Shown here one piece after another: positions 536 to 54,040 of a stretch of DNA of 64,000 nucleotides. This stretch comes from Nageia nagi (taxonomy: Eukaryota; Plantae; Pinophyta), in contig JBITNC010000001.1 in NCBI GenBank assembly GCA_050084985.1, forward strand, positions 179,986,001-180,050,000, in the 5' to 3' direction. The translations under genes and the position numbers were made by a program. Under the pieces are notes generated by a model, which had not been told where the DNA came from, made no database searches, and worked only from the letters and a program-made list of their open reading frames with translations. Numbering within the stretch: position 1 is the first letter of the stretch; each line of letters opens with the position of its first letter.

Positions 536-882
536 AATTTGTTTCTTCTGACAAATGATCTAATTAAAGCATGTGACACTGATTAAGAGCTAGGATATGT
601 CAGAAGGTATCTCAATCACATGAGAATTGTTTTTCAGATTTGTTCCTTCTATTCCTTGTAGGATTCCTTATCTATTGGAATTTTGGAAATCATGCATTAG
701 TACACATTGCTTTATTAACTACAAAACTAGGCCTTCTCTTCTGTGCAAGGTTGTTATTGTTAGAATCCCACATGTTGGGAAGGAAACCTTTCCTCTTACT
801 CAGCGATCGTCCATATGATCAAGATGGGAAAGCAACCCAACATGTAGGTGAGAACATATTACTGAACTCCTCTTGTAAGGAC

Positions 883-12999: not shown

Positions 13000-13967
13000 A
13001 CCACTCCCAGTATTCAAGGCTGAGAAGAAGCGAGTGATGCAGGTTTTTGATGTCATCCTAGGAAGTCTTTGTTGGAGTTGACAGTGGATTGATCTCGTCA
13101 TATCTCTATGGTCACCCGGGCGCTTACTATTTGAGACTCCTTGGGGCTGGAAGAAGGAAGGGATAAGTCTGAATCTAGTGCCTATCTTAAGTCTATTATT
13201 GAGTTTTTTTCTCAGATAAAAAGAGCAATGGACCTCTAGTGTTCCTAGTTTATCCCAGATTTTAGTGTATGGGTGTCTTTAAATAAGCAATAATGTTTGT
13301 CATGTATCTCATAGTAGATGGGGCAAGTGAAGATAAAATGCTCTTCAAATTCCACTTCGAGATTGCAAAATTTATAAATACACTAATCTTTGGGAAGGTG
13401 GTGATTTGTCTCAATATGTAGTTGGTGTGAACAAGCTCGTAACTGGGCTAGAGGGAACTTGAGGCTATGCGACATTTGCATAAAGTTATCTTTTGGGTTA
13501 GTGCTCAATCTATTTTCTATTTGGAGTTAGAAGCAAAAAAAATGAAGTAGCTTCAGTGATAGAGGCTCCTTTGGTTCAATCTATGTAATCTTTCGACATG
13601 TTGAGTATATCTCGTCTCTATACTCCTTATTAATACTAAAATATGCAGCATTAGTTGGCAGCTTAGTGTTGTGACTGAAACACAACATGCCCCCAAATCT
13701 TGCGATTTTGGGGACCCTCAACACTTCATGTAAATACTTTGCAATGTTGTAGTCTTATCCAACTCAAGTGATGTCGCAAGACCCAGATTCAAGGACAAGC
13801 CCCTCACGTTCAAGCCTCATCCTTCGTCCAAAGTCAATCATACCAAGCTAAAAGTGTGAAATTCTTCCAAAAATGGCTAAGTCCGGAAACTGAACGTCAA
13901 CCTTAGGTGAGCTAGGAGAGTCTAGGACGAGCCATGATAGAATCAAGCCAAACTGGGTCACTCCTAG

Positions 13968-14941
13968 GGTTGGCGCATGATTTCAAAAGACAAAATCTTG
14001 TCTTTTTGAAACATGCAACTAGACCTGGGAGCCGTCCAAACTAAAGTTGAGGCTTGGAAAAGCAATCTGGGCCACTTTCAAGCCCAACGCATGCCTCCAG
14101 GAGAGAAAATCTTTACTTTTCGAAGCATGCGCCAAGGACAAGCAACAAACTGGACCAGGATGAAGCTCGAAAAGACAAGGTAGGGATACTTCAAGGTTGG
14201 CGCATGGTCTCAAAAGACAAAATCTTGTCTTTTTGAATCGTGCGACCAAACTGGGAGAAGCAACTGGGCGAGTTCAAGGATTGAGAAGTGAATCCCAGGC
14301 ACCCAAGAGGCTGGCGCAAGCCTCAAAAAGACAAGATTTTGTCTTTTTGAACCATGCAACTAGCCCAAAAAGGCTTGCAATTTGTTCAACCAAGAACAAT
14401 GACTAAAGCATGAAGCTTGAAATCTCGGGACCAAGTCCAACACACCCAGGAGGGCTGGCGCATGATTCCAGAAGATAAGTTTGTGACATTTTGAGCCATG
14501 CGCCAAGCCCAAGAAGCCTCTAGGATTGACCAAAGGGGGGGAATTTGGCAAAGGCAAGGGAAAAAAAGCATCAAAGAACGAAAAATTGGCCATCTGGAGG
14601 TTGGCGCATGATTAAAAAAGACAAAATCTTGTCTTTTTTAACCACGCAACCAAGATGGACGGGCAGGAAAGGCTTATGCATGCCTTAAAAAGTCAAAAAC
14701 ATGATTTTTGGAATCATGCGCCAAGCTTGAGGAGTGCCCAAGTTGAGATGAAAGATCAAATTCGACAAGTCCAAGCACCAGAAAGACCAAAAATCAGGAA
14801 AGATCAGGTCGAAGGGCGAGTTCACAATCGAGACAAGCAAGCAAGTGAACAAAAAGGGCCAACGTTTGAAGCATGCTCAACCCCAAGGCTAGCGCATGAT
14901 CCAAAAAGACACAGTCATGTCTTTTTTGGCCATGTGCCAAG
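13968..14941. repeat. Array of 8 spaced ~53-bp palindromic units (GGYTGGCGCATG-N-AAAAGACAAAATCTTGTCTTTTT-N-CATGCG)
   Basis: Units start at ~13968, 14081, 14195, 14309, 14452, 14599, 14671 and 14887, separated by dissimilar spacers of ~20-160 bp. Confidence 0.9.
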
Positions 14942-15093
14942 CCAGAATGAGCTCTAAAACCCCAAGGTCCGGTCACAGGCAACTTGACATGAATTTTGGC
15001 GTAGGCACACATCTCGAGATCGTCCAAACGGATGGCTAAGATCAAGTTTGCTCATTAACCTAATTGACTAGGGTTAGATGCAAGCCAGTTTGG

Positions 15094-15102
15094 CTATAAA
15101 TA
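15094..15102 (+). promoter_or_regulatory. TATA box upstream of the orphan ORF
   Basis: CTATAAATA, 230 nt before the ATG at 15324. Copy C has TATAAAA at 40724-40730 before its ATG at 40865. Confidence 0.5.
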
Positions 15103-15323
15103 CAAGCCTGGGGACTTCATTTTTTCAAATCCAAAACTCGCTCCTTTTCCACTTTTGTGCCAAAGTAGCAGGAAACTGCAGATTTTTGAGCTTGAATCCC
15201 ATCATAATCTATCCTAGGGCTTGCGCAAGCATTTGGAAGGCAAGCCAATCCAATGTGGGGTGCCTTCACCACTTGGAAACCCTTGCATCACCCTTGAGAG
15301 ACTTCGTTGCAAACCTGAACACC

Positions 15324-18300
15324 ATGACTACTCCCAAGGGCAATGTGGCTTCAAACTTTGCTAGGGACCTCGAGCAGTTGACACAAGATTGCGTTATCAC
15401 TATCTATGAAAGACAAGACTCCCTTCCCCAAGGGGCCAAATTCTCGAGGAACGTTCTTGCTACCATCAGAGATACAGAATGGCAAGACATTGATTGAGAG
15501 ATAAAATACGGGAGTTACCCATCAGTGACCTCAAACAAGACATTGTCTTCTTCTTTGGACTCTCCACATGCACATGTGTACCCTTCACAGCTCCGTTTCT
15601 TGAATTGTGCATGGAGGTCGACCATCACTGGCAAAAGGGGGGGAGAGTCCTCCGTGATATCAAAGGAGACATCATCATGGACTTCAGCCCCAACGCCATC
15701 AAAACGGTGTTCCAGTGGACTCAAGAAGGAAATTTCAAGTACAACGAGGCACAATCACTGGCATGCTATCAAGAGACCAACAGGGCCGTTGTTGCAATCA
15801 AGAATTGGATGTTGGATGACCATCATGGACTCAAGGGTAACACTCTCATAAATGCTCCTCGTTCCAATTTCTATCCTTCAATTAAGTTGATGATCTTGAT
15901 GTTGTCCAAGGTTCTCGAGAAGGAAGATGCTTCTAAATTCAGGAAAGAGTTCTTTGGCTTCATCATTGAAATTGCTAGAGGGAAAAGGATTAGGTGGAGC
16001 AAGGTGTTGAGTGACACAATAGCTGATCAGTTATCATCCATAGGCACCACTCGCAAATTCTACCTCAATTCATACCTAGTGTACATGTTGCTTCACGACG
16101 AGTACAGGGCCATGGCGAAAGGAGAATCAACATTGATCGAGAAAGGGACCTATGCCATTTGGAGATGCTACCCTAAATGGAAGCTTGAGAGGAGATGGGA
16201 TAGTTTCACCATGAAGAACAATGGATGGGAGTATGAGATCTACAAGGAGCTCAAAGGAGAAATCACAGTGGCAAGGATCTCTAACTCAGCCCAAGATGCA
16301 TTGAAGAAGCATGGGGACTTCTTCCTCCATCACCAACACTATTCCTATATCAAAATCCATGGGTCAGCCGTGAAGTCGTATCAATTGCCAAGGTTCATGA
16401 GCAACAAATTGCTTCTTATGGAGATGAGGCAATTGGCCTATCTACATGAATAGGTACGGAAGAAGAAATCGACTTCTTCAAATTTGTCGATTATAGTAAG
16501 TGAATACCAGTGTAAATCTTGGGCGGACGTTCACACTATGAAGGAAGAGTTAGCGAGATGTAACTTCAAGAAGATGCCTACCGCCGACCATTATGACCTT
16601 AACCACAGGATGCACCAGTTCTTCATGAAGGAAAGGAAGAAAGCATATAAGTACAAACCACGTGGAGAAAAGGAACCTTTCCGAAATGGGAGTAACGAGG
16701 TAGAGATGAGAAAGATTCGCGAAAAGATGCATAAAGATGCCCATGATCAGCAACACCTTGTCGAGGCCACTATCAACAAGAGATTATCACAACAGGAGGG
16801 AAGAAGACCTCAAGAGTCCACATCCAGGGTCACCCAGTTTCCTCCCACAGTTGAAGCACCAGTTGGACAGTATGCGTCAATGCGTGGCAAGAACCCAATA
16901 GAGTAGAAGTAAGGGATACCATTGATGAGCACGAAGTGAGAGAGCTAGAACATGTGGCCACGGACAAGATGGTGAAGTGTGTCAGGAATAGAGAGAAGGA
17001 TTCAACCCCACCACCAAGATCACCTAGAGAAGTAATTGGGAGTCCATCACTAGTCATTCCGCTATCTAGGTCTGCATCCACTAGTCCCGCATATGAACCT
17101 GACAACCATGAGGAAGAAGAGGAAGTCAGTGAGACAAAAGAAGAACAAGGAGTAAGTGCATATTAGCACGATGAAATCCCAGATACACGGCAAGAAGACG
17201 AATCCTTGGAGATAGTGAAGGTAGTCCAGAACCCCACAGCTTCCAAACCATCCACAGAGAAGGTTAAGGGATGGGCCTCAGAGACAGTACAGAGAAGAGC
17301 CTAGTTGAAGAGAACTTCACAATCATGGACAACAAAAACCTCCGAGGAGCTTGGTGAAGAAGAGGCAAGACCCTCGAAAAGGGCCAGGAAAAGTACCACC
17401 ACCATTCAGGAAGTAGTTGTTAAGACTCATTAGCCATCACCTACAGATGAATGGAGAGTTAATATGGAGGAGTGTCTGGATGTGTTCAACATGGATGTTG
17501 AGGAGGAGTTTGGAGTGAGAGAAGAGAATGATCAGATTAGAGAAAGCTCCACTCGCCCGAGTAAGACCTAGACTTATGTGCATCTAGCCAAGAACACAAT
17601 TCACATCAAGACTATAATCGCAGAGAAGGAGAATTCCCAACGACTTGAAGATCTCAGGCAGGTGAACCAAATCATCAATACAGGTCCTATTGGTTTGGCT
17701 GGTCGGAAACATGCAATCATCTCCACCCTTGAGGCGATTACCAAAGATGGGATGATGAAAGAGAAAGAGATTAAAAGCCTCAAGAAGAAGTTAGTTGCAC
17801 AAAAGTAATTGACTAGAGAATTAGAGTTAGCTAAGGTGCCCACAGAGGAGCTTCGAAAGATAAAATCACTTGAAGAGGGCATGATTGCAGTGAAACAGGA
17901 AAAATTGATGAGGTCTTAGTAGTAGTACAGTAGTTCATTGGTGCACTACAAAGGGTAGCATTTGAAGAGCAGAAGCTGAAGGATATTGTGGTGGAGAGAG
18001 CCAGCCTTCTCAGGATTTTGGATTCCCGAAGGCCTATGATCATGAAGTTGGAGATGACACGAGACCGAAGGCTCGAAGATGTGAAGTTTTGTGAAGAGTA
18101 CTGGTTCTACTTGGGTGTCGTCAACCAGATAGCCACACATTTCCAGGAGGTGCAGAAGCAGGTCGAAAAGCTCAATGACAAGGCTAACACTAGCCTCAAG
18201 CAGATGGATTTCCAGGTCAAGTTCATTGATGATGATGCCACCATTTGAGATAAAGACCTGGTAGTGGCGAAAGTGAGGCACTTTCTTCACAGTCTAATCA

Positions 18301-18527
18301 TGACTGATGATGTCAACACCTACCAAATTGGGAGTCACTTGAAGCACCTACCTAAAGCTCGCACTTGGAAGGATGATATGCAGAGGATGGTGGACAAGGT
18401 TGGACGCCGCATCACTAGGAACGGGCCAAAGCTATCATAGATGCTGCACGGGTTAGAACTCACAGCAAAGTTCTTGGATGAAGATTTTGAAAGACGCATT
18501 GAGGTGTTGGGCCCACATGTGCCTTAG
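15324..18527 (+). pseudogene. Disrupted ~1060-codon orphan gene of element A
   Basis: Same-strand ORF pieces 15324-15497, 15494-16453, 16484-16906, 16936-17166, 17578-17808, 17988-18248 and a tail ending ...ERRIEVLGPHVP* chain through single stops and frameshifts. Collinear homology with 40865-44446. Confidence 0.85.
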
Positions 18528-20621
18528 TCGCAATTTTCATAGTTTTATGTTATTTTCAAGAAAATGCATTTATTTTATGAAACATTTTGATTATATTTGA
18601 TATTTAATTCCTATGTTTGAGATGGATGAGGATTTGCTCCCACAAACTTGGAAGACATTTAGTAATGCCATGTGGCAAGCTTTGATTGAACCATTTGTTA
18701 CTTCTTGGATTTTGAAATTAGGGTTAGGGAAACATTTAGGGTTGCCACAAAACTATTTATAGCCCACTAGGGCTCATTTGTAGGGGATTAGATATTTTTG
18801 CACTTGTGAGAGACTTAAATTTTACTTCCAATTCAGCAAGTTTGCTCCATTTACGAATGTGATATACTCCAAGTAATTGAATTGTAAATGCTCTCATTTG
18901 AAACAATGAATGTTAATGGATGTTACTTTCTTATGTTGTCTTGAATACTTGGTGCATTTTGTAAATCCGGTTTAAGGTGGACAAAAGAGTGCTTGAACAT
19001 TCTTAGAAGTACTTCAAGTAACGCATGGTTATGTAATGATTCATAGTTTGCACTTAGGACTTGTACACTTTATGATGGCTCCCATATGTCACTTAGTCTA
19101 GGAACTTCACTCCTTTGATTAAGGTCTACCCACCTCTCACCCCTTTTACCTCCATCGCCTTAGCTTCAAGCTCCTCTTGCTAGGTCATTTGTGTCGTTGC
19201 CCAACAAGTTGGATTCAGAGTGCGTGGAACCTATGACAAGCCCGTGAGAGTTGAGTCTTAAAACCTATACCAATCGGTGAGAACATTGAGCTCATGTGCT
19301 GAATTCATATATCACTGTCTTCTCAACCTTTTTTCTTTTATTTTTATCCTTTTTTGTCGGGCTTTTGCAACCTCCCTTTTCTTTTCCTTTTGAAAAACAA
19401 CCATTCCTGGGGACAAGGACCCTTCGAGTCCTTGGTTAATGAATACTATTTGAGTTGGAGATAGCTTCAAACATCTCTACCAATCCCCTGAGTCACCTCT
19501 TGCACACTACAACACTAAACCTTTGAGGTAACCAGTCCTCATAGCGGGTAGGTGTCACGCCCTACCACTCAAGTGTCGGTGTCTTTCTATGGGCCTTGCA
19601 ATTTAAATTGCCCATTAGCAAGGTAGGAAACAAAAAGCCCCCAACACTTAGTAGGAAGGAGTCTCCATTATAAGTATTTCAATTTCGAAGGCTTTTATGG
19701 CCTTTGTTTCTTCATTATAAGTATTTCATGCATGATTTGAGTTATTCTTTCATTTCAAATTTGGTTTTAGTCACTAATCTATAAGGACAAGCTTGGTCAT
19801 CATCTAAGTTGATCGTAACCCCTGCAAAATCTAGGACGAGTCAATCCCCCCAAAACCATTGAACTTCCAGGTGCTCTTTAGAAAGAATTCGATGGTGAGT
19901 TTCTAAGGGTTAGAACTCTGAGATGCACAACATATCACATTCCTTGTTTCAAATTGATATATGTTAGATTTACAATTGTGATGCTTGTTTGTTAGATCTT
20001 CATGGGCCTAGTTTGTTCATTAATGTTATATTACACTCCTTTATTGATATTTCTTCTAGGCAAATTCTATATTAATCTTGTAGGCAAATTATTGGGTTTT
20101 ATTATTGTTATAATTCATTTTTTTCATCTACATTATTGTGTAAGGAAACAAATGTCAAATTATTATGTTGTATATGGAAGATGTAATCTTATGGGATAAT
20201 GTATCACTATCACCAACATGTGGCAAATATATCAGGTATCCCTTCATGGTTTAAGGGGCCCATAGGTTCTATTTCATGGGGCTTTAACATCCATGGTATT
20301 ATTAGTTGTTAGACATAAATATAAAAGGGAGATGTCATTAATCATGTCTTCAAACATTGTACACGAAAATTTGGAAGGTTGCCCCTTCATAGTGGCTATG
20401 CATATTATGGTATTTCTCTATCTTAAGGGTTCTCAAATATCTTATGTGCAATTCCTTTTGTTCTTCAATTATTTTTGCACATTGTGGTGACATTTTGTGG
20501 AGTATTATTCTTATTTTCTAGCATTTGCAAGTTGAATCATAACAAAGGAAGGCAACTTTTTTCCCCAAAACTACAAATACAACCTTACCCAATATAGATG
20601 CATTATGTATAATATTCTTAC

Positions 20622-20700
20622 CACGTCCACGCAATAATCGTTGAATTGATTCCACTGAACCTCCTATACATAATGCAGTTGGAAAATCCTTCTTACAATC
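20622..20700 (-). CDS. NDUFAF5: NDUFAF5 coding exon 3
   Basis: 79 nt, [26 protein letters not shown](G). TGTAG acceptor and GTAAGA donor. This is exactly the segment expected after LLDRLE in plant orthologues. Confidence 0.92.
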
Positions 20701-20721
20701 CTACAACACCAAAGTCAAAAT

Positions 20722-21033
20722 GGCAGTATGTCATTGTTAACCTGGTAACACTGTTTCGCACATTGCAATCCACAAATGATGCTTGAAAATTAATCAACAT
20801 TATCTAAAGCCAAATATACCTTGGACTTTAGAATCAAATAAAATCCAACTTTCTTTTGTTTAGAAGAAGACAAGAAAACGGCATTATGTCATTGGTAGCC
20901 TGGTAACACCGTTTCACATATTGCAATCCTTTTCTTATAACACAACACAAGCGATGCTTAAAAATTAATCAGCATTGTCTAAAGAGAAATATACCTCAGA
21001 TTTTGGAATCAAATAAAATCCAACTTTCTTTTG
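20722..21033. repeat. Diverged ~140-160 bp direct duplication just inside the intron 2 acceptor
   Basis: GGCA.TATGTCATTG...CCTGGTAACAC...GAATCAAATAAAATCCAACTTTCTTTTG at 20722-20858 and 20880-21033. Confidence 0.85.
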
Positions 21034-24000
21034 ATTAAAAGCGGACAAGAAATTAGCCTCTTTCCTTATGGTTATGAAATTATAGTGAAGGATGTGAAGT
21101 ATAGGAATGAAGAACTGTCATCATTAAAATTTCATTCTTGTCAAATGCTTGTGCAAAATCATTGTGTGCTAAAGTCAATGATTCTTATGCACAAACATAA
21201 ATACATTGTAAAGTAACATCGTCAGCATAAGTGTTAATGGCAACAATAGGGTTTTATTCCAATTTGGTTAAAATACCATTGAGCTTGGGCTCTTCAAGCA
21301 AGATTGAGGGGGAAAACAGGTGGTGGAGACTTTGATGTGCCAAGCAAGCAAGTCAAACATTAAGAATAAAGAAGCAACCAAAAAAACGGTGAAACACTCT
21401 TCAAGACCGAAATTTCTTGACAAGCAGCTAATTGTAAATCGCTTTAGGTCATTATGATGATTTTTGCATAGAAATGTCTCCATGTCATGCACCCCAATTC
21501 CATTGTCCGAATTGAGGATTCAATTCCTGTTTGTAGTTACTCATAATTCCTTTTCCTGAATTTATACTACTTTTTTTTAATTACGTTTAATGTTACATGA
21601 GACCCATGGATACCAAGAGCTATAAATTTTGCCTGCATGATTTATTCCAGCAAATCATAAACATATTCACCATTTTTGGTGAACAGGTTTCAAATTCTGC
21701 CACACCATTTTCCATGAGCAGATCAAGTTGCTAACTTACCCTTTACCGTGAGTGGGCTTCCAATTCTCATCAGCCTCTACCGTAAGCATGTGAAATTTCC
21801 TAGCTAGTCAGACCAGGACAATGTCAGTATCCATGTTTACATGATATGCTTCAATAGTTTGATTTACCTTAAAATCATAAGCTCCTCATTGTCCAACAGG
21901 TTTCAAGAACATTTGTAAGGTAATGATTAGTTTACTTGATGTTACAGTCAACTAAAGGAGTTTCTATCATATGTATCATGTCCTGTATTTTCATCATAAG
22001 TTCATACAGGTAATGAATCTAAGTTCTGCATGATATTCGTCTAGGATAGGTCTTGACCTCAAGTACGCTTGAATGTAACCATAGTCAATGCTTGCATAAG
22101 TTTATTGTTCTTCTGAAGAGATTAACAAATTCCCATATCATTTCCAAGATCTAACCTTACTGGATAGCTCAAGCAACTTGCAACATATATTTTAATTATA
22201 TGCTATAGGTGAACAGCCTAAAGTGTTATGCCTGCCATTTACTGTTACATCATAACATGGTGGTCATATGCCTAGTTGCTCAATTTAATAATAGATTCAT
22301 ATATTTGTTTTTATCATTCAAAATTGACCAGTTAAACTCCATGTATTTTACTTTCCCATTTTCACATAATATTATGTTACTTCTCATGATATGAAACTTG
22401 TGTATATATTTCCTGTTTTTCTTTACTACAGTTGCAATACAAATGTGCATTGATCATCATTCCCTGTTATCTATAACAGTAACAACAGTTTAAACAAATA
22501 AACATGATTATAAAGCTTATAAACAAGATAAGTCATTCACCATAAAGATACACAATTTATTGTAGTGGGGAACTCCAAAGGAGGAAAACCCACTGGCAGT
22601 TTTCACTGCCATGCAAATGATTCTTTTATTATTTTTTTCTAAATGCATTACGTAACCTAAGCAGTGGAGTACAATTCCACTAATTACATGTTTCTCATGC
22701 TCTATTCATTTTTCCGTAATCCAGTGCCATTGCAATTCTTATGCTTTCATGCTATTTCACATGCTCCGGCACGTTTCCTTGCATCCTTTATTCAATGCAA
22801 TTGCAACTGCTTTTATGCAAAAACACATTCTCATGTTCGTACAGGCATTCCTTTCCCATGTCATCATAACACAAACATTTAATATGCATTATACAATCAT
22901 TCCAGAAGAATACATGCTTTGCAAATGTTCTTAAAACAATACAGCTGTACAATCTCTCACATTCTAGCATGAACTGCCTCCTATGCAAATTTGGACAGCA
23001 GTAAATAGAAGAACCCATTGATATGTAGCTGGTCTTACCACATTCGAAATGAAATGTTCAGCCATAGGCCATTATACAATAATATAAGTTTACCAGAAAT
23101 GCCAGCATTAATTTCTTAAGACAAAATGCAATGCGGTTATCTCTATCTGCTTATCACAGTTGATCAACACACATAGTGCAGATTTAAAAACCTTAACATA
23201 TGTGTATTTACAAATATATTTGCAACAACAATAACTAAAAATAAATGTTTTTTTCTTCAACTGTGCAAAAGCAACAAATTTACCAGCTAATACAAAAATG
23301 AGGGCATCCATGGCTAGAAAACTGCCTCTACTTCTACCTAGAATACAACTTAATCTAGTGTAGTTTTATCATGTTTTCTAAAGCAAATTTTACTAATGCA
23401 AAAGACCATTTTCATGGCTGCAAAAGGAATGCAAGGCAGTTGATTTTCTTTTCACAAATTCGTCATGAAAATAAGAAAATGAACTTCCAACAGTCTTACC
23501 TTTCTAAAACAAGAAACAACCAGCATTCTCAAAGAAACAATTCCTCAATGGAAGATCCACAATCTTCAATAACAAACCCACAAAAATATATATGCATTTC
23601 AGTGATCTTATGAACCTAAGAAAGACATTGTTTCCAACTCGAAACCATACCAATCATAAACAACAACAATGCAAATATGCAGAGTGTTCCATGCAATACC
23701 CATCAAAAACTTATGGACAGCAAACTCTTTTCACATTTCCACACTTAGAGGGTTAAGCATTACCTCCTTGCCTTGAAAAATCAAAACATAAGAAACTTCA
23801 ACTTACTTCCCTCTTCTCCTCCTCTACACTGCGCACTGTCTGCTGCTCAAATGGAGTGGATTAATCCTGTTTTAACCAACCACACCAAGGTCGGCACAAT
23901 TTCATTTCAAATAGCATGCTCTTGCTCATTCAATGCCAAGTTCATCATGGAGTTGTAGAGACTCTTCTACTACACTCCATCACCCAAACAGGCTCCACAC

Positions 24001-33300: not shown

Positions 33301-33309
33301 TTCAATATT

Positions 33310-35374
33310 TTCTTAAACTATTTCGTTTCGTTCACAGTGGCTTGCCCTATTAAAAGTGTCATCTACAAACTAATGATGTGTGACAGCTTCACAATCTCTT
33401 CTAGGAATTATTTCTTTTATTGTATCCTTTCTTTTTTCATCTTTTATTGCCATTTCTAATGCTTCTTCGATGATTATAAAAAAATAAGGAGAGATCCTTG
33501 TCTTAATCCTCTTTAAGAGGTAAAGTACCCTACCACTTCACCATTAACTAGTACAAAAAAACTTTGGAGTAGTGATACATTCCTAAATCCATTTCCTCCA
33601 GGTTACTCCAAAACCAAATTTTTGCAAGATTTGATCCATGAATTTCAAATTGATTTTATCATACGCCTTTTCCATGTCTAGTTTTAGAATCATAGCTTCC
33701 TCTTTTTTTATATTTATTGAATGTAACACTTCATGCATCAAAACTATTCCATTTGTGATTTGTCTTCCCTAAACAAAACCATCCTACTTTGGAGACACAA
33801 TCCATGGCAAAATTCTTTTTATTCTCTCAATCATGATTTTGCTTCCTAGGGCTTTCGGATAAGAACTAAGAAAGTTGCATTCCATGCTTTTAGTAATGTA
33901 CCTTTTCTAAAGAATTCCATAATTGCTTTTTGTACATTCTCTACCACTATTTCCCAATTTTATTGAAAGAAGCCTGTTGAAAACCCATTCAAACCTAGTG
34001 CTTTATCCTTGTTTAGTAAGAACATAGTTTCCTTAATTTCCTCTTTAGATACAGGTTTTTCCAACTCCAATCTTGTTCTTTGATCTATTATTTGGGGTAT
34101 ATACTCCAGAATTTTCTTCATTATTGTCCTATATTTCCCTTTAGTCTAAAGATAATAACTTCTTGTAGACCCTTTCTAATCCATTCTTTATTTCTTTATC
34201 TCTAGTTATGCTTCCATCATATTTCTTTACTTCAATTATTCTATTAAAACTCCTTTTCAAAGTAGTAATTTGAAAAATCTAGTGCTTCTATCTCCTTCCT
34301 TTAACCAAGCTACCTTGGATTTGTGTTTCAAATTTTCAATGTATTTCCTCTTGGGTTAAAGTGTTATAGTGCTCTAATATATCTCCTTCTTCCCATCAAT
34401 AATCACATCTCTTCCTTCTCTTAAGATCTGTTGTTCTATTTCCTCTAAAGCATTTTTTAGGGTTTTTTTCCTAGTTTTAACATTTTGGAACGCATGTTTG
34501 TCTCAATGCTTAAGTTTTCTCTTTACTTCTAGCTTTCTTGAGAGTTTGTACATTCCAATTCCATTTACTTCTTCCTTCCACCATTCTTTTAAATTTTCTT
34601 TGACACTTGGATGTGTCATCCACATATATTCAAATTTGAATGGAGATTTCTTCCTTTGTTCTAGATTCATATTCAGCAGCAATGGATAATGGTTAGATGT
34701 TATTCTTGGCAAAGATAGTAAATCATTGTTTTGGAACTCCTCTAGCCAATCCATTAAGACCAATATCCTATCTAAGCTCCTATGTATGAAATTCCACCCA
34801 CATCTTCTATTTGATCATGTAAATTTGTTTCCTTTGAGACACAAGTCTACCAATCCAATAGAGTCCATCAAGGTCCTTAAATCTTCCAGGCTTCTAGACA
34901 GATTAGTTCTTCCACCAAATATATCTTCTAGGTGCAATGGGGAGATCAAATCTCCGCCCACCACCCGTGGTTCATTTTAAAAAGTTTTCATATGATCTGT
35001 CAATTGCTCCCATAAAGTTTTTCTACTACTTAGAATATTTGGAGCATAAACATTTGATAACATAAAGGAAAATTTGTTGTCAATACACACTACTCTTACT
35101 ATGATGCATCTTGAAGAAGTAAAATTAACTCTTTGAATGTTTACAGTTTTTGGGGTCCACAAAATCCATAGCCCACCAGCTTTTCCTACTACATCAATCA
35201 CCTAAATATGTGCTTCTTTCCAAATCTTATACTTCATTGTTTGTTGTTTCTCATTTTTAACTTTAACTTCCTAAAATAAAATTATGTCTAGTTTGTATAC
35301 CATCCAGACTTCTCTTGCAAATTTTGTCTGCCAGGTAAGTTGCAACCTCTTATATTCCAGCATAGTAGATTCAT
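33310..35374 (-). pseudogene. LINE ORF2 pseudogene (APE endonuclease + reverse transcriptase)
   Basis: MNLLCWNIRG start; GKAGGLWILW; NVYAPN; SNHYPLLL..FKFEYMW; LKLDMEKAYD; RGLRQG; FVDDT at ~33355-33370. Many stops. Confidence 0.92.
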
Positions 35375-36480
35375 TTTGACTTCCTTGAGCTGGGTTTCCC
35401 ACCTCCACTCCACTCTAGAGTGTTATTTTTAATAGCAGAACTTGTATATCTTCCCTATTTACCCACATTTGTTGTTTTCTAGAATTTTTAATTGTTCTTG
35501 TTCTGGAATGTTCATTTTCCTTATTTCCTTTTGTATTCTTCCCTCTTTTCCTACTATTTCTTTTTGTTAGTTGTCTTTCATGCTCTTCAGCAACTACATC
35601 TATCTCTACATTTGCTTCGTTCTCAGCCTCTTCTTCTGCAGTCTCCTCTTCTTCTTCTGGCTCCTCTTCTTTCTCTTCATGCTCATTTCCATCTATAGAC
35701 TTTTCCGGTGTTTTAGTAGACTCTACATTGATATCCCTCTCTTCGAAGAATTTGAGTTTCCTAAACTTCATATGTTGTTTCTTCCTCATTTTCCTCTAGA
35801 AATTCCTTTGTAATGTTTCCCAAAATTTCATATCAGTTTCTTTGAGCTGATGTTTGGGGTATTTCTGGAAATTTCTTTGGATTTTGTATTTTTTCAGGCA
35901 CTTTCCCCAGTAGTTTGTCTTGTGCTTCCTTCATTAATTGATCTGGTCCCTTTAAGGTCCTTCCTGCGGTATTTCTTTTTCTTTTTCTTTTCCTTTTCTT
36001 ATTTATTGATCTTGGTTTTCAATCCTTCTACATGTCCATCTCCATTCTATATTTTGCCTTTGTCTTCTGTCATTTGCTGGTTTAGTTGGACAGTCTTTTC
36101 CAATATGGCCAAAGATTTTGCATTCAGTACAAGCCATTGGCTTTAAGTTGTGGGAAAGTTTTTGAATATGCTCCCTATTCTGACTGAAACACAACATCCC
36201 CTAAAATCTTGCAATTTTGGGGACCCTCAACGCATCATGTATATGCTTCGTTTTGTCGTCGTCAATCCCACCCAAGTTGCGTCTCAAAGACATAGATTCA
36301 TGGACAACCTATTATAGTTCAAGCCACTTCCTTCGTCTAGGGTTAGTCATGTCAAGATAGGAATTTCAAAATCTCTAAAAAAATGGATAAGTCTGGGAAA
36401 GGTAAAAGTCGATCTTAGGTGAGAACTAGGGAGTCTAGGAAGAGTCGGAGCTTGATCAAAGCAAACTGGGGATCTCCAAG

Positions 36481-37448
36481 GGCTGGCGCATGCTTCAAAA
36501 AGACAATCTTGTCTTTTTGAACCATGCGACTGGGCCTAGGGGTCATCCAGACAGAAGGGAAGGCTCAAGAACGGAATTTGGGCACTTGCAAGCCCAGCAC
36601 ATGCCTCCAGAAGACAAAATCTTGTCTTTCCTGGGCATGCGCCAAACACAGGGAGCGAAATGAAGCCAAAGTAAGCATGGAAAACCCAAGGCAAAGGCAC
36701 TACAAGGCTAGCGCATGGTTTAAAAAGACAAAATCTTGTCTTTTTGAACCATGCGACTTGGCCAGGAGGACAAGATGAGCAAGTTCGGAGGTCGGGAAAT
36801 GATCATGAGTCATCCAGGAGGCTGGCACATGCTTCAAAAAGACAAAATCTTGTCTTTTTTAACTATGCACCAAGCCTAGAAAGGCTGCCAGTCTGAGCAA
36901 AGTGGAAAATTTGACAAGTCCCCGGACTCAGGAAACTCAAGACCAACTCAAGCATGCCCAAGGGGTTGGCGCATGGTCTAAAAAGACAAATTCTTGTCTT
37001 TTTGACACATGTGCCAAGCCTAGGAAGCCTTAGGATTTGAAAAAAGTAAAAATTTGGCTAAGGCATGGGCACTTGAAGATCAAACTCTGGAAAATAGGCC
37101 AACTGGAGGCTAGCGCATGCTTCAAAAAAAAAAATCTTATCTTTTTGAACCATGCGACCAAGCTAGATGGACAAGCAAGGCTAGCGCATGCCTTAAAAAG
37201 TCACAAACTTGACTTTTGGAAGCATGCACCAAGCCCACAGGTTGCCCAAGTTGAAATAAAACATCAAAATTGATAAGTACAGCTGACCAGAAGACCCAAA
37301 ATCAAGAAAAATTAGGTTACTGGGTGAGTTAGGTGAACAAGGCAAGCAAGCATGAAGGCAGGAGACCCAAGGTTGGAAGCATACACACCCTTAGGGCTGG
37401 CGCATGGTTCAAAAAGTCACTTTTTTGTCTTTTTTTCCATGCACCAAG
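36481..37448. repeat. Array of 8 palindromic units, positionally equivalent to 13968-14941
   Basis: Units at ~36481, 36591, 36706, 36820, 36964, 37108, 37179 and 37394. Confidence 0.9.
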
Positions 37449-37534
37449 CTAGGTTGAGCATTAAAACCCAAACGTTTGAGCACAAGCGGCTTTATAGGAG
37501 GTTCTGGGCTGGCACACATCTCGAGGTCAGCCAG

Positions 37535-37694
37535 GTGGGAGAAGGATATGATGAGGGTCACCGACAAGGTAGAGCGTAGCATGGTGAAGAATGGGCCGAA
37601 GCTATCAAAGATGCTACATGGATTGGAGCTCACAGCCCAATTCTTGGACTACTTTGAACGGCGTGTAGAAGCGTTGGAGCCACCATCTGCCTAG
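37535..37694 (+). pseudogene. C-terminal remnant of the orphan gene in copy B
   Basis: WEKDMMRVTDKVERSMVKNGPKLSKMLHGLELTAQFLDYFERRVEALEP matches WKDDMQRMVDKVGRRITRNGPKLS*MLHGLELTAKFLDEDFERRIEVLGP at 18367-18527. Confidence 0.85.
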
Positions 37695-39200
37695 TCACAA
37701 TATTTGTTGTCTTGCATTTATTATATTTCATAAGTTATTTTTGGAGGCTTTATTTATTTGTTAATAAATTCCCAAATTTGTGATGGATCAGGATTTGCTC
37801 CCACAAATTTGGAGGACATCTTGTAATGCCATGTGGCAATGTTTGATTGGACCACTTATTATTTCTTGGAACTCGTAATTAGAGTTAGGGCAACATCTAG
37901 GGTTGCTCTAAAAATATTTATAGCCCATTTGGGCTCATTTGTAGAGATCAGACATTCTTTGCAACTGGGGACTACTTACATAATACTTTCAATCTTGCAA
38001 GTTTTCCCTTTTCGCAATTGTGATATAATTCCAAGAAATTGAAGTGAGCTTGTTTTCATTTGGGACTATGAAAATGAATGAGTGTTACATTTTTATGCTA
38101 TCTTGAGTATTTGAGACATTTAATAAACCTTGTTGGTGGATAAAAGAATGCTTGTATATCCTTTCGAAATATTTAAAGAAGTGTTTGATTGTAAAGTTTC
38201 ATAGTTTGCACATGAGATTAGTGTGTTCTAAGATGACTTGTGTATGTTGCTTAATATAGGAACTTCACTCCACAATTGAGTTCTACCCACATGATACCTT
38301 TCTTATCCATCGCCTTAGCGCCAAGCTCCTCTCGTTGGGATGTTCGTGTTGTCGCCTTTCGAGTTGGATTTGGGGTGAATGGAACCTATGCCAAACCTGC
38401 ACAAGTTCAGTCTTAGAAAATCGTACTAATCGGTGAGAACATTGCCCTAGAGCTGAATTCATATATCACCGTCTTTCCACAACTCTTTTTCTTTATTTTC
38501 TAATTCTTTGTGCGGCTTTTGCAAAAAACCTTTTTTTCCTTTTCGTTGAGAAACAACCATTCCTGGAGTAGAGACCCTTCAAGTCCTTGATTAACAAATT
38601 TCATTTGAGTTGGTAATAGCTTCAAACATCTCCACCATATCACCTGAGTGAACCCTTCCATCCTTCATTTTCAAACCTTTGAGGTAAAAGTCCTCATAGC
38701 CGGTAGGGGTCACACCCTACCACTCAGGTGTTGGAGTCTTTCTACAAGCCTTGTGATCCAATTTACCAATCAGCAAGGGTAGGAAAGAAAAAGCCCCCAA
38801 CACTCCCCATTTTTGTTCTTCAAACAGATCCTATTTTGTAAGGGTTTAGAAACATCAATATTTGCACAAAGACATGTTGAGGCATACCTCTATGCTTCTC
38901 TTGTATTTTTAATTTTATGCAGGCAAATGAAGGTTCTTAAAGATTTGGCTACCCCTTTTATAAGATCCACACACCAGAAATCCAAGGGTAGGTTTGGAAG
39001 GGTTATGCATATTGGTACTATTGTGCCTACACAACACCCCCCAAAATTTTGCATTTTGAGGACTCTCGAAAATAAAAGGCCAATGTATGTAAGTAAGACA
39101 TCTGTCTAGAAGGAATGTATACATCTTGGTCTAGTTTCAGGAAACATGCTAAACTTGCACATTCATAATCAAATCAAGTCAAAAACCTGCATTTTTCCTC

Positions 39201-40616
39201 AGTCGCACATTTTGAGGGACATGCTTTTGCACATCCCCTAAATGGTGCAACCAACCTCATGTTGCATTTTCACACTCATACTTGCATTTTTCAGCCTTAG
39301 AGTTGCACTTTCGGGGTCCCTCATGCTGCAAGTCCATTTCTCTTTCATTGCATTTCGTATTTAAGGTCATCATGGTCAAGTTTCAAAGATAAAATAGGTT
39401 TTTCAGCTAGTCGCATGTTTTCAAGTGTATGCTTTTGCACCCACCCAAAACCGTGCGATCAAAACTGGGAACTCATACTTAGCAATTTTTCGCAAAAAGG
39501 CTTAGTTGCATGTTTTTAGGTGTGTGCTTTTAAAGCACCCAACTCAAACCATGCGACCAAGGAGGAGAAGACTAAGACTTAGCCGTTTTTAGAGCTTACA
39601 AGGCCAATCGCATGTTTTTCAGTGTGTGCTTTTGCACCCATCCAAAATCGTGCGACCAAATTCATGGGGTAAAATTTGGTTGTGTCGGACTCAAATTGTT
39701 GACGAGTTTAAGCACATGCATTTGACCACTTCTTGCACTAATCATATAACGGCACCTGTCCTATCCAAGAAGGCTATAAAAGGAAGTTCAACCTCGATCA
39801 TTCTGTTTGGAAGGTTGCCAAGAGCACTGCGTGGAGCTAAGGGAGAAAAAGCACGTCCTTCAAAACTTGCGACCTGTTCAAATTTGCATTTTTTAGTCAT
39901 TTTTCACCTATGTTTGAAATTTCTAGTCTCGGGAAGTGTGCCAAACCCCAAGCGCATCATTTGTTATACATGAAAAAGCAACCCTCCCGAATCATACGCC
40001 CAGTCTCAAACGTTTTGGCTCCGAGTGAAATTGGCAAAGTGTTTGAAATCTAGAGGAAAAGGCCAGGCACAGGGTTTAAGGTGCATGCTTTTGAACTCTT
40101 CTAAAGCGATGCGACCAGGAATTGGGCCCCATCATACATTTAAATTTGACTAAGTTCCCTACCCCCTAGTCGCATGCCTTTTGACACATGCTTTTGCACC
40201 TGTTCTAGACCATGCACCCTCTATTTTAGCTCTACCATTTGAACATGAATCCGACCAACCCAGAGGTGACACGTGGCAACCCGCAAGGTTATAAATATTA
40301 GGCCACCCCTTAGTCACTTTTACCACTTCGTCTCAGATTTTCTCCATACTCCCCAGTCACACCATTTTCTAGCATATGCTTTTGCACTCTTCTAAAACGG
40401 TGCGCCAAGAAAGAAATAAGGAGTTTAAGGGGGCCATTATGCATCCAAATAGCCCTTGAGGTGCATGCTTTGCAGTGCATGCTTTTCCCCTCACCCAGAT
40501 CCATGTGCCTAGGTGTGAGGTGAAGAATTATAACCCAGAATTTGACTAAGTGACCCAAATCCTAGTCGCATGCATTCCAGATAGTGCTTAAGCACTCATC
40601 CAAAACTGTGTGTCCA
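39201..40616. repeat. Array of ~9-10 spaced ~52-bp units (AGTCGCATG-N-TGCTTTTGCAC-N-CRTGCGACCA)
   Basis: Units at ~39201, 39408, 39503, 39606, 40066, 40167, 40355, 40460 and 40563, plus a degenerate one near 39700. Confidence 0.85.
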
Positions 40617-40984
40617 GGGTTACAAGGCAAAGTTGGTTAAGTTTGAGATGCCAAGAGTTGGGAAGAGAAGAAGACAAGTGGCAAGCATGCACCTTGCCAT
40701 ACATTCACCCTCAATGCATCTCATATAAAAGGAAAGCAGTTTTCATTTAGTGTGTTGGACGTCCTGCAACCCAAACCTACACATTTGGTTCTTTCCTGCT
40801 ACACCCTTCACAGCATCCAAGCTTGTCCTTAGGTCCTTCCAGGGGCATTTTCAAATAATCCTGCATGGCTTCCACTATTAGACCTCCTCCATCAAGAGCC
40901 AGGAAAATTCAAGGACAATTGTTTGAGAGACATGTGACTAAAAACCAGATGGCCCGGCTTTCGAAAGAAAGTTTGATTGAATTT

Positions 40985-40987
<3 letters not shown>

Positions 40988-41031
<44 letters not shown>

Positions 41032-41035
41032 GAGA
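40988..41035. repeat. (GA)n microsatellite
   Basis: Direct inspection. Confidence 0.95.
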
Positions 41036-41360
41036 AACCAGAGCTCCCTGAAGCCAAATTTAAAGGGAGATACATCTTTGTTGGTGATATAAACTGGGAA
41101 AACTTGGACCCCATCCAGACTTTAGCCTCTACTGCCTCCATCAATAAGGAGTACATATCAAAAGAGCTTATCCACACTTGTGGCTTGTTCAATGCCACTA
41201 TGATGCCTTTTGCAGTACCTTTTCCTGATTTGTGCTATGAGGTAGCCAGGAGATGTGCATACGACAAGAGAGTCCTACAGGACACAGAGGGAAATGTAAT
41301 TATGGACTTCTCCCCTGTTGGAATTGAAGCAGCCTTTGGTTGGAAAAGGTATGGGGACGA

Positions 41361-41448
41361 CTACACACTAGCATATTCTGAGGAGTTCCATGATTCCATA
41401 GCCTCTACACACTAGCATATTCTGAGGAGTTCCATGATTCCATAGCCT
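41361..41448. repeat. Perfect 44-bp tandem duplication
   Basis: CTACACACTAGCATATTCTGAGGAGTTCCATGATTCCATAGCCT twice. Confidence 0.95.
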
Positions 41449-44400
41449 GGCCTGGGGACTACATTCGACCATGGTTACTTGAAGATTATCAGAATCTTCA
41501 GAGCCAAAGGCTGATCAACACTCGTATAGAGGATTTTTTGCCTGTTGTGGCCAAGCTGATCACTCTTTTGTCTAAGGTCACTGGTCAAGAAAATGATACT
41601 AAGTATAGAAGGGAGTTTACGAGCTTCATTGCGGTTATTAGCTCGAAGAGAGCTATCCGATGGGCTGGGGTAATCAGTGATGCCCTACACCAACAGTTAG
41701 CTTATTTTGGCTCCTCGAAGAGATTCTACATGAATTCCTATCTTGTGTACTTGTTATTGCATGGCAAGGTCAGGTCTAAGGAGTTGGCTGATGAAAGATA
41801 TTTAGAACAAAAGAGCACCCCCATGTGGCGAGCTTATCCAAAGTGGTGGTACCCAAACAAGTTCCAGAATTTCTGTGACAGAATTGGTATGATATCTACA
41901 AAGATATCAAAGGGGAGTCAATGGTGAAGAGAATTTTTGATGCAGTCGTCCAAGCCATCAGTGTACATGTAGATATCTTCCTGCAGAATGCTGACCATAC
42001 ATTCATCAGAGCCTATGGCTCAAAAAGAGCGACCCTTGCTCCTACCAAGATATGCCAGCGACAGACTCATCCTCATGGAGTTTGCTAAGCAACTCTTGTT
42101 CTTTAAAGAGAAAGTTTGGAAGAAGAAGAATGCGACCATTAACTTGGCTATCTGAATTGCAAGGTATGTGTGTCAGACGTGGGTTGACGTAGCTAGAATG
42201 AAGGAGCTGCAACAGTATGCCTTCTCCAAAAAGGCAACAGCGAGAAACTATGATCCTAGAAATAATTGCACATTTCTACAGCACTACATTCCACAAACCT
42301 ATCGCTTTTCAGCATAAATCTTTGGAGAGTGTGGAGAAGTATTGAAACGTGCAAGATGAGGAGATTGCAAAGATAAATGCTCTCCTGAGCAAGAAAAAGG
42401 CTCCCCTCCAGGTAGAGAAACCACCTCAGAAACCCCGAACTACTAAATCTAGATCTACAGAGGTCCCTCTCAGGATCGAGTCATCTCTTCCTTTTGTTCG
42501 AATTGCACCACCACCAGTTAAGGCACCCTTGCTTCCTGTTGGAAGGAGGCAAGAGGCTCCGAGGGAGCACATTCCAGGCCCTAGCAAGCGTAGTGTAGTA
42601 ATGGCTGATCTCAAGGATGCTGGCTATCATACTATCCCCTCGAATGTACTGGATGAGGCTTGTGCCAGTGATTCGCCCATAAAAGAGGTCCCTTCCAGAC
42701 CCACTTGTTCTTCTGGATGTAGGGAGAAGGTTCCCCCTTTGCAACCAAGTTCTACTTCCAGTTTTGAACATCCCACTTCCTCCTCCAATGAAGAGACTGA
42801 TGAAGAACCCGACTGTAAACTAGAAGACTCCGGAGAAGAGTCAAAAAGCCGTGGTGAAAGAGAAGAAGAAGAGGAAGATGATGATGATGCTACCGATTAA
42901 AAAGATGTAGCTATACGTGCCTTTGCACTCGATGAGACGGAGATTGAAACTCTTCCAGATGAAAATGAGATAGTGCACGTTGGAACCTATGATGATGAGG
43001 TCCAGATCGTTGGAGATAGGTGTACTAGAGAGGTGGGTGCTTCCAAACCCTCTCTTGCCAAGCATAGGAAAAGGTCCCCTTCTTCATAAAAACCCTCTAC
43101 AAAGAGAACGAGCCATGAAAGGTGCCCCTAGCCACGGAATAAAGGCATATCTATAGGTGGCGATGGAGGAGATGAAGAGGATGAAGGAGAGATTGAGGAA
43201 CAAAAGAAGAAGAGAAGGTAGGAAGAGCACCAAGGCAAGGAGATTACCTTAGTTCAGACCACTCCAGCAAAAGAGGTCAAGAAGATCAACAAAGGACGAT
43301 TGTTGGTACAGAGGTTTCCTCCCCAGCCAACGCATCCAAATCTTGACCTAGATGCCTGCCTTAGAGCCCTCAGCATAATTACAGCTCATGATGAAGACAT
43401 AGACCAAGATCTACGCTCTAAAAATGAGGAAGAGGAGCTTTTAGATGGTTAAAAGATTTGAAGGGTTGATACATTTGTCTCCACCTCCCGAAAGGAAATC
43501 TCCATCAGCCATTGCTATTCAAAGGAGAAACATCCTCAAAGAGCAAAAGATTATGTTATCGAGACATTTAAGATGCTTGTGAAACTATGATTGACAACCT
43601 GTAAACATAGTCACTCAAAACGTTGCAGTCGTGGAGAAAGAGGGGTACGAAGCCAAGAAGGAGGTGAAAAGGCTGAAAAGGGAACTCACGGCCAGCAAGA
43701 AGATCATCAAGGAGTTCTAGAAGGTCAATACCACCCCTCAGATCTACAGAAGCAGACCTCCTTCCATGAGAGATGGGATTTGATGAAAAGAGTAGCTGAA
43801 GAAAGAAATGATGGAGGCTATCGAGAGATTGTCTTCTCGAATTTACAAGCTCCTTGCTGAAGGTGTGGAAATCAGGGACCTTAAGACACAAATATCAACA
43901 CACCTTAGCACATTGAATGGCCATTTTCCCAACGTCTCCCATCTGCAACATGTTTACGCTGACAATCCTAAGAAGTTAGTCTATTGCCACAAGTTCACAT
44001 ACCACCACAATTGGTTGAATCATGCACTCGAAAAGTGTAACGCAGTCTTGAAGCTCATAATCCCCTTGAGATTGGAGGTCGAGGAACAGATGAGTTACTA
44101 TGCCTATCAGCTAAAGTTCCAAGGGGAGGACAACAATGTGAGAAAGAAGGAGGTGGTATTGGTAGAGGCTCAGAACATGATATAGGAGCATCTAGACATC
44201 GATGATCTCAATTTGCTGAAGGCAGGGCATCCTATCGACCGCAAAAGGCGGATGGTCATCTAGAGGCACTAGATGCAGGCTACATCTAAGAAGATAGAGG
44301 ACTACTTTCCGTAGAATGGTAGCACCATCGGTATGATTTCCGGGGGCATGCGGAAGACTGTGACATTCTTGGAGGAGACCATTGAATCGTACGATCTCAC

Positions 44401-46634
44401 CAACAAGGAGTGGAACTCCGCCAGTACCGAATCAAATCTTGCCTAAGTCTGATCCACTCACAGATTTACTTTGTGATATTTGTTCTTTTGTTTAAATGCA
44501 TATTTGATGGTGGTTGTTATGTTAGATTCTATTTACTTGATTTGACTGGTGCAAGGATGAGTTTTTGCTCCCGCCGGGTCAATCTATCAGACTCATTTAT
44601 GACTCTGATCGATGCAGGGATGAGGTTTTGCCCCCGCCGGTTCAGATGTCAAACTTTTCATTGCATATTTGATTTGATTTTGAGTAGTTTAGAGGTAGAT
44701 TAAATGCACTCTAGTAGTGGCATTTATATTTTGTCAGACTTTTAAGTGCCACTTGCATCATTTCATGTGAACAATCTGATTTTGTATCGGTATGTGTGTT
44801 GCATGTGTGCACATCATATCAGATTTGATGCCCTTAGGTAAACACTTCTAGTGGCATATTTATACTCCATCATGGCCTTTTAGAAGAGGATTTGGCATTT
44901 GGGATTTTTGCATTTGGAATACTACTGATGTTGAGAATTTTACGCATATTTGCACATGTGAGACTCTGCATTTAATAGAAGTATTACATATTGAGGATCT
45001 TGCATTTCGAGATGTTGGTTTCAAACCTTTACATGTGTAAGATTCTTTGAGTTTGTTTAAAGCTTTTACATTCTGTTGCATAAAGGTTTGCTGCATAAGG
45101 GGTTCTATGCATGTTCATTATTGAATATCATTATGAATGTATTTCTTTTGTGGGATGAGATTATAAAGTTAATATTGTGAAGGATATCATTTGTGGGATC
45201 ATGCATATTTGAATAATTGTCCCCTTGGAGTTGCATATTGAATATTCATTGAAGTAGTTTGAGTCGTTCTTTGCATGGTTTGTACGTAAGTCGATGTATT
45301 CTAAGGCTCATAGCTTGTCTTTATACCATTCGATTAGGTTCCTATGCTCACACCTCACCTCATTCATTTCTTCCCACTGAGTCTTCCACTAAGACCCTAC
45401 AGCTTCTTGCTCTTGTCTAGTAGTGATTTGAGCACATATTGCTATTTGTTGCCCGACTTGATAGTGAGTACATTGACCTTAATGAATTTGAAGATGACCT
45501 GCAGAGACACTACATCACTGGTGATACCTTCATAAGTTCATCTTTCCCTGTATTCCTTGGCATTTATCCCTGTGTTTGTCCCTGCATTTGTGATCTTTCT
45601 TCGCTTTCATTCACATTTGTAGTCATTTCTCATTGTGGAGAAGAACTCTGGCGTTGTATTTCCCTTGTATACGGTTAACAACATGCATCTCTGACTATTG
45701 TGCCTTAAAGACCATATTCCATGTGAGAGGTTGGGGTAACCAGTCCTTTCAGGCGGAAACAAGTAACGTTGTTTCCTCCAAGTCTTGTGCATGTTTTGGA
45801 CTAGGAAAGAAAAACATACCAACAGGTACCACTTCAAAAGATACTTTTTCAGGTCTAAAACTAGGATACCATTTTTTCAAATGTAAACCACTTTTACCGA
45901 ACCACCAAGGTCCATTTTCCAGTACCCATTCCATGTCTTCTTCAACATTAAACTCACAAATCAGGAAGTCACATGAGAGGGTTCCCATTTCTACATTTCC
46001 TTTAATGATCCAATTTTCTTTGATCCATTTTCTGACATTTTCCAGCACTAGTCTGGATCCCATAAATTTCCCAACCAGAGACAGCCTTCTTGTTTCATCT
46101 ATTTTCGATGTCAGCTCATCAAGCATAATTATTTTGGACATATCTTGTCATATTCAACTTTTTGGATATCTACGGGTACTCCTATGCTTAGTTTGGGCAT
46201 TCCGTTTTTGGTTTTTAAAGTCCAGAATCCGAGAGGGTTCCCCCCCAGGAAGGTTTGGGGTCCATGGTTTTGTTGCTTACCTGCTAATCACATGTGCTGT
46301 CTGATCTGTCCTGATCCCCTTCATTTGGGGATTCTCTGTTCATGGGCTTCATTCTCCCTTCTTCCCACCCCTTAAAATTTGAAATCGCCCGCTCCTGTAA
46401 ACTAACAATATGGCAACCATAGAGTTTCTGATTATTTACAATATGAAGAATCTGTATGTATACCCACTGACTGATGCAACAGCAAATATTAGAAGTTGGA
46501 ACTAATCAGATATCTCTGTCATTATATAGTATAGCTGCAATTGGAAATGATGCTTCTTAGTTTGATTTTCAGCTTGCTCAGTTAAGTACAAGTACATGAT
46601 TATTTTTTTCTCAGATGAAAGCCTGATCTAAGAT

Positions 46635-53600: not shown

Positions 53601-54040
53601 TTGAATATGTTAGGAACAGCAAAACACAATCATGTTGGTTCAGTTCAAATACTTTCTATTGAGGATGGAGATTGCCATGTTAAATTTCTGGATTTAGGTT
53701 CCATTGGCATGCACATTCCAGCTGTTGACAGCGACACTTATTCCAATATAATTGTTTATCTTGGCTGTAGCAGATTTTCTCTACCAGGTATTGATGATAA
53801 TGAGATTGGAATCTCCAACCATTGTTTCAAATCTGCTCATTTTGTAGAAAAAGTTGCCATGAAAATGGAAGAGTATTTTATTATTGGCAAACAGTTTTTA
53901 TGGGGTAAAAATGAGAATTTGTTTCTGAAATCAGGAAAAGGAAATTATTGAAAGAGATTCTTACCAAATACCTGGTTCATTGGAAGGGATTTCCAGATTC
54001 AGTTTTCATTGTTTGAGGACAAGCAATTTTGGGAGGGGTG
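50692..54040 (+). pseudogene. Disrupted orphan ORF inside the non-autonomous LTR element
   Basis: Same-strand pieces 50692-51042, 52142-52828, 52943-53137 and 53424-53951. Ends at FEDKQFWEGW, which resembles the gypsy pol end overlapping the PPT. Confidence 0.6.
51045..51864. mobile_element. hAT-type MITE
   Basis: 8-bp TSD CATTAGAC (51037-51044) / CATCAGAT (51865-51872), 6/8 identical. Imperfect TIRs CAACTTTATCAGGG / CCGTGACAACCTTG. Many GGGGAC/GTCCCC subterminal motifs and an AT-rich core. Confidence 0.75.

Follow-up and report, generated by a model that had tools for sequence, protein, structure and literature searches.

Units with integrase-type ends, a putatively VANC-like gene and a palindrome array in Nageia nagi: probable solo long terminal repeats of a giant gypsy-type retrotransposon

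The window analyzed here, a stretch of 64,000 nucleotides from Nageia nagi (assembly GCA_050084985.1, contig JBITNC010000001.1, forward-strand positions 179,986,001 to 180,050,000), is AT-rich, plant-type intergenic DNA packed with nested retroelements. Among them lie three plus-strand units, each probably a solo long terminal repeat (LTR): the full-length copy 1 (13667..19646, 5,980 bp), copy 2 (36176..38802, 2,627 bp), and copy 3, from a distant family (39019..45824, 6,806 bp). Perfect 5-bp target-site duplications (TSDs) flank all of them, namely CTTAG at 13662-13666 and 19647-19651 for copy 1, and CTCCC and GGTAC on both sides of copies 2 and 3, respectively. An earlier note on this DNA had given these coordinates and TSDs, and they proved exact; chance would produce perfect 5-bp matches at all three pairs of fixed ends with a probability of ~2.5e-9, and a TSD within the 4-6 bp required of solo LTRs accompanies all three complete units. 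Copies 2 and 3, only 216 bp apart, both interrupt ORF1 (DUF4283 match) of an L1 long interspersed element (~33300-46400, minus strand), and as its reading frame resumes on either side of each, they constitute clean insertions. The presence of two different families at one L1 spot may reflect chance or target preference.

While the sites and TSDs of all three copies were borne out, copy 2, previously counted as complete, is actually an internal-deletion derivative of the family of copy 1, which it matches at 72-74% identity along both arms. Its deletion, near 37528-37536, took out the gene promoter and spared just ~50 codons of the gene, while the palindrome array (36485-37446) and the tail promoter (37898) stayed in place. 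Between copy 3 and copy 1, similarity is confined to the initial ~50 nt, the final ~130 nt, and a single internal motif, plus proteins 33-38% identical. The end fragment noted earlier at 883..2315 is indeed the left end of a related unit, from a further family with the first ~50 nt in common; however, it lacks a TSD, runs on the minus strand, and sits within a chromovirus-type gypsy element, whose 5' LTR it breaks nine bases in, with a few target bases missing. The units are real, old, decayed within the window, and unusual.

Their layout runs from terminal hairpins through the array, promoter 1, the gene, and promoter 2 to a conserved right end. Two adjacent hairpins open the unit (13667..13713 in copy 1, plus strand) and are common to copies 1, 2, and 3 and the fragment; these ~50 nt reach z-scores of -4.4 and -3.9 against shuffles, the former matched in 0 of 200 shuffles. 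At the opposite end, a conserved block (19520..19646, plus strand) terminating in ...GGAAA(C/G)AAAAA...CCAACA was present at all five right ends examined, its ~130 nt being common to copies 1-3 and two metagenome loci (L001 and L002); the motif has three occurrences in the window, where 0.02 would be expected. Of the TGTTG-like...CAACA termini reported earlier, the right half stands at every end, whereas TGTTG itself holds only for copy 1 and the fragment, with copy 2 starting with TATTCTG and copy 3 with TATTGTG (CA at 5/5 right ends; TG at 2/4 and TA at 2/4 left ends).

The gene of copy 1 is a large open reading frame (ORF; 15324..18527, plus strand) of ~1,060 codons, preceded by a telobox (TAGGGTT) and a TATA box (15069..15102, plus strand) that make up promoter 1. 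Its counterpart in copy 3 (40865..44446, plus strand) encodes an N-terminal domain 33-38% identical to those of copy 1 and L001. A single gene of ~3.2-3.6 kb had been claimed for the long copies; the ORF is present in both but broken in both by stops and frameshifts (three frameshifts and several stops in copy 1). Within the copy 3 ORF, an (AG)n run at 40985-41035 has expanded and is translated as ERERE. The gene has been under purifying selection. In copy 1, the encoded protein comprises an N-terminal part with a predicted VANC/PMD-like fold, an acidic low-complexity middle, and a helical C-terminus. Modeling of the N-terminal domain yielded a resemblance to VANC21 (PDB ID: 9LNK) at a sequence identity of 6%, and a VANC-like fold is likely on that basis. 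Neither DUF1985 (PF09331; 0 of 92, among 25 of 26 families shown) nor PMD (PF10536; best E 0.023, in 1 of 92) scored above its cut-off, and two further domain scans gave no match to either. A known DDE transposase, which the earlier note had named as a refuting result, was not detected: neither a transposase family nor a transposase fold was matched for the modeled part of the protein. Where that note had proposed no function, the VANC21 match suggests one, VANC-type anti-silencing. An 18-nt motif ~100 nt past the gene stop (18624..18641 in copy 1, plus strand) recurs in copy 2 (37785) and L002 (2831), is doubled in copy 3 (44555 and 44618), and is missing from L001; it may be the trace of an older LTR boundary.

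Upstream of the gene, copy 1 carries an array of eight spaced 48-bp palindromes (13972..14938) with arms GGCGCATG...CATGCGCC and a 32-bp spacer, the arms and spacer length being those of copy 2 as well. In copies 1 and 2, each with eight palindromes of ~48 bp, 228 of 330 positions pair across 15 of the 16 palindromes tested. The array of copy 3 (39202..40614) consists of eight looser 50-bp dyads with arms GTCGCATG...CATGCGAC, a 34-bp spacer, and a different centre, while both array units visible in L001 have AGCGCA(C/T)C arms; arms and spacer are therefore family-dependent. The palindromes are likely candidates for protein-binding sites. Although the array units form hairpins (z -5.2 and -2.6), compensatory changes did not exceed those in shuffles (9 vs 7.1), a lack of covariation that fits a sequence-read site better than a selected RNA stem and proves neither. 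That the protein binds its own array in an anti-silencing role has a little under even odds. Two further TATA-like boxes lie within the array of copy 3, at 39775 and 40291.

Past the gene, a second telobox and TATA-like box (TATTTATA; 18719..18790 in copy 1, plus strand) lies ~890 nt before the right end, and no ORF of at least 100 codons follows it. A TATA-like box lies no more than 60 nt from six of the 12 TAGGGTT(A/G) sites in the window; these six are on the plus strand, one in each LTR of the control chromovirus, one at the gene promoter, two in the tail of copy 1, and one in that of copy 2. The pair is present in four of five tails (copies 1 and 2, L001, and L002). It is likely an LTR promoter and would then divide U3 from R/U5, its direction being deduced from the motif order. 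A conserved tail promoter with no ORF behind it would be understandable had the unit formerly continued into gag-pol.

The absence of terminal direct repeats, asserted in the earlier note, was upheld, and inverted ones were lacking too: 18 head/tail tests scored 14-27 against shuffle maxima of 21-30 (two exceeded all shuffles, by one point only), while two paired-LTR elements of the window, used as positive controls, scored 411 and 1611. The short terminal repeats of an ordinary element enclosing the unit, which that note had named as fatal to its proposal, were thus found in none of the 18 tests, and the two ends match in inverted form over ~5 nt only. Large retrotransposon derivatives (LARD) and terminal-repeat retrotransposons in miniature (TRIM), which are non-autonomous LTR elements, possess two direct terminal repeats with a primer-binding site (PBS) and a polypurine tract (PPT); the units do not have this structure. 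TGG was absent 0-5 nt past all five right ends, and no purine tract preceded the four left ends, while the control elements carry PBS-Met and a PPT. Such an absence is expected beside a solo LTR and equally beside a stand-alone element.

In each of four public runs, 2,000-3,084 contigs align to copy 1, with all 30 bins covered and identities mostly of 80-95%; this coverage and spread of identities point to a diverse family of high copy number. Contigs that span the left end (10 per run in two runs, among 24 loose ends listed of more than 2,100) have the same first bases, and their upstream agreement is poor (0.67-0.69 over 30 letters). The protein has eight close relatives at 57-77% identity, and wider searches returned 131 cluster representatives of up to 488 aa and 55 matches to a broader profile. 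The named relatives are from Taxus chinensis, with a cluster of 28 members across several chromosomes, one of them a stop-free 994-aa protein with its parts in the same order (25% identity over 414 aa, E 4e-36). No homolog is fused to reverse transcriptase (RT), integrase, or gag. Three predicted gene models (P0142, P0170, and P0088) apparently join relatives to unrelated enzyme domains (arabinokinase, cyclophilin/RRM), and probably reflect intronic element copies wrongly annotated as exons. Three metagenome loci were retrieved, with two right ends, both unpaired: that of L002 resembles copy 1's and lacks a PBS, and L001, with a nearly open gene, has one right end, also without a PBS. Positions 1-2050 of L001 are an inverted duplication of tail and flank, i.e., a fold-back chimera that probably arose by amplification or assembly. 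No paired copy was found in viral or prokaryote contigs.

The most probable reading, at roughly 55%, is that each unit is a solo LTR of a giant gypsy-type retrotransposon, with a gene inside the LTR whose protein, predicted to have a VANC/PMD fold, would bind the array and keep the element unsilenced; the LTR identity by itself is somewhat better secured, at about two chances in three. The earlier note had offered a solo LTR with an internal gene as one of two readings, and part of it gained ground: the tail promoter is of LTR type, the PMD/VANC-type fold is typical of gypsy accessory genes, and no DDE signal was found. Several caveats apply. Around the three window units and the two metagenome right ends, neither a paired copy nor a PBS or gag-pol came to light; copy 3 lacks the telobox and TATA pair in its tail; the pattern was picked post hoc; the tail box also reads as TATA on the minus strand; and with arms just one base apart in copies 1 and 3, array and protein co-vary only modestly. 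The LTR reading is favored because the tail promoter and the unlike ends were given more weight than five unpaired ends. By analogy with gene type and size, the lineage is guessed to be Tat/Athila-like. The excerpted sources give solo:complete ratios of ~1:4 to 1:7.5 in Pinaceae (PMC5751070) and 2.8:1 in Cupressus (10.64898/2026.07.23.736688); by our own arithmetic from these figures, three solos among three insertions would have a probability of ~0.003 or ~0.4, respectively.

The strongest alternative, which is unlikely and was the other reading of the earlier note, is a stand-alone non-autonomous element, always single, excised and inserted in trans by an integrase-type DDE enzyme, with a VANC-like protector as its sole gene. 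It would represent a new kind of plant mobile element: unpaired, with integrase-type ends, a VANC-fold protein and its palindromic targets but no mobility enzyme, and several high-copy gymnosperm families. The missing PBS and PPT, the poor upstream agreement of the left-end contigs, the separate singles of copies 2 and 3, the retention of both ends and the array by the deletion derivative, and the unfused homologs all suit such an element. The inverted match of ~5 nt, however, is unlike the terminal inverted repeats (TIRs) such enzymes use, the conserved promoter near the right end would have no role in a single unit, and the sample amounts to five ends. We also know of no route by which a unit lacking PBS and R could be copied by reverse transcription. 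Integrase-like DNA transposons with TA or TG ends do occur in plants, according to the available text of PMC6839031.

Less likely still is a solo LTR in the reverse orientation, with the minus strand as sense, the 0.9-kb tail as U3, and the gene placed in antisense within an R/U5 of great length. In three of four tails, the minus-strand reading of the tail box is GGGCTATAAATA, in agreement with the gene's own TATA, and antisense ORFs and repeat arrays adjoin an LTR in Retand (PMC11963269, in part). The telobox-then-TATA order and the T-rich tail past the box nevertheless agree with the plus strand of the control LTRs, and the position of Sirevirus palindromes in the cis-regulatory part of the LTR fits the array as U3 (PMC4728375, in part). 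The same source portrays these palindromes as hotspots of small interfering RNA (siRNA), in line with another equally doubtful proposal: a solo LTR whose palindromes are host-factor sites or siRNA-generating hairpins, and whose protein has an unrelated role. Hairpin formation, an array kept by copy 2 without the gene, and arms within one mismatch between copies 1 and 3 despite the divergence of their proteins would accord with it; the lack of covariation, as for a sequence-read site, and a predicted fold that points to a DNA-binding family speak against it. Very improbable is a non-TIR Mutator-like (VANDAL-type) derivative that retains only its VANC-like gene: the fold match and the repeat arrays in which VANDALs hold VANC targets recall it, but TSDs of Mutator-like elements are ~9 bp, the units have 5-bp TSDs and TG/TA...CA ends, and neither a transposase remnant nor a MuDR transposase match was found. 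VANC has also been described as dicot-specific (PMC13547354).

Under the solo-LTR reading, a giant gypsy element would have taken its 3' accessory-gene region into the LTR, giving an enlarged U3 that comprises everything left of promoter 2 (5.1 kb in copy 1). Promoter 2 of the parent would have driven genomic RNA through PBS and gag-pol, while promoter 1 would yield the regulator's own mRNA. The regulator might bind the dyads as an oligomer via its helical C-terminus and protect or activate its own LTR in cis, and related elements in trans. Integration left 5-bp TSDs and TG/TA...CA ends; recombination between two 6-7 kb LTRs could then have produced the solos, which would dominate as very long LTRs recombine often.

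If this holds, plant LTRs reach 6-7 kb and contain a selected regulatory gene of ~1,000 codons, and every recombination-derived solo LTR still bears a trans-acting factor and its targets. VANC-type sequence-specific anti-silencing, so far associated with dicot DNA transposons, would extend to gymnosperm retroelements, and a testable function would emerge for the PMD-type accessory ORFs of gypsy elements, which have long lacked an explanation, with protein and candidate site adjacent and family-variable. Parents of ~19-21 kb would be too long for commonly used search settings (in one gymnosperm study, the two LTRs had to lie within 15 kb), so that an abundant component of giant conifer genomes could stay hidden. 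In the literature covered, mostly outside subscription papers and two REXdb supplements, neither a plant LTR with an internal gene nor a gymnosperm element with a VANC-like one came up; the element table and sequence file of PMC6317226 may bear on novelty.

Other elements of the window include the decayed chromovirus-type gypsy at 874-8250 (plus strand; PBS-Met near 2745, RT and integrase matches, PPT before 7863, LTRs 83.5% alike) and an LTR element at 49314-55157 (plus strand; 1.1-kb LTRs 88% alike, PBS-Met), possibly non-autonomous, whose interior ORFs (52094-52828 and 53412-53951) have no Pfam match. A second decayed gypsy gag-pol (~28900-33150, minus strand; RT 30898-31554, integrase 29501-30049) directly adjoins the L1. 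A region of AT-rich tandem repeats occupies 58831-60721, and 160 bp are locally duplicated (78%) at 20717-21052.

Among known systems, retroviral genes in or overlapping U3 or the LTR (e.g., MMTV sag, the HIV nef overlap, and foamy bel) likewise place a regulatory gene in the LTR, but in animal viruses with LTRs of 1-2 kb and with unrelated proteins. Athila, TatII/TatIII, Ogre, and Retand are alike in their 5-bp TSDs (predominant in Athila, TatIII, and Ogre), TG...CA ends, PMD-type accessory ORFs, and adjoining family-specific repeat arrays (PMC6317226 and PMC11963269, as excerpted). Their extra ORFs, recorded on the 5' or 3' side of the polyprotein (PMC6317226), lie between the LTRs, whereas here gene and array share one TSD-flanked unit of 6-7 kb; TatII/TatIII are gymnosperm-specific, with whole elements of 8-18 kb, and Retand has LTRs of 315-1,194 bp, with antisense ORFs and arrays between pol and the short LTR (PMC11963269). 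Sirevirus LTRs have a similar palindrome-rich, fast-evolving cis-regulatory region, but belong to a copia lineage and, in the text available, contain no gene (PMC4728375). GingerRoot elements of plants share integrase-like ends (TA or TG) and a length of 4-13 kb, and differ in 6-bp TSDs, TIRs of 100-150 bp, and a DDE transposase, none of which occur in the units (PMC6839031, in part). PMD proteins (PF10536; gypsy PMD-A and host MAIL1/MAIN/MAIL2) have been grouped structurally with VANC by published modeling, and MAIL2, which is associated with a palindromic motif, counteracts silencing; described PMD-A is from angiosperms, and no member here passes the Pfam cut-off. VANDALs are dicot Mutator-like DNA transposons with a transposase, and VANC21 targets 9-nt motifs in tandem repeats, whereas the present dyads of 48-50 bp and a protein of 6% identity are known from sequence and a model. 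What likens the two systems is an element-encoded protein with a coiled-coil-like C-terminus and, by prediction, a related fold, whose gene adjoins an array of family-specific short motifs (VANC21, PDB ID: 9LNK; PMC5735166).
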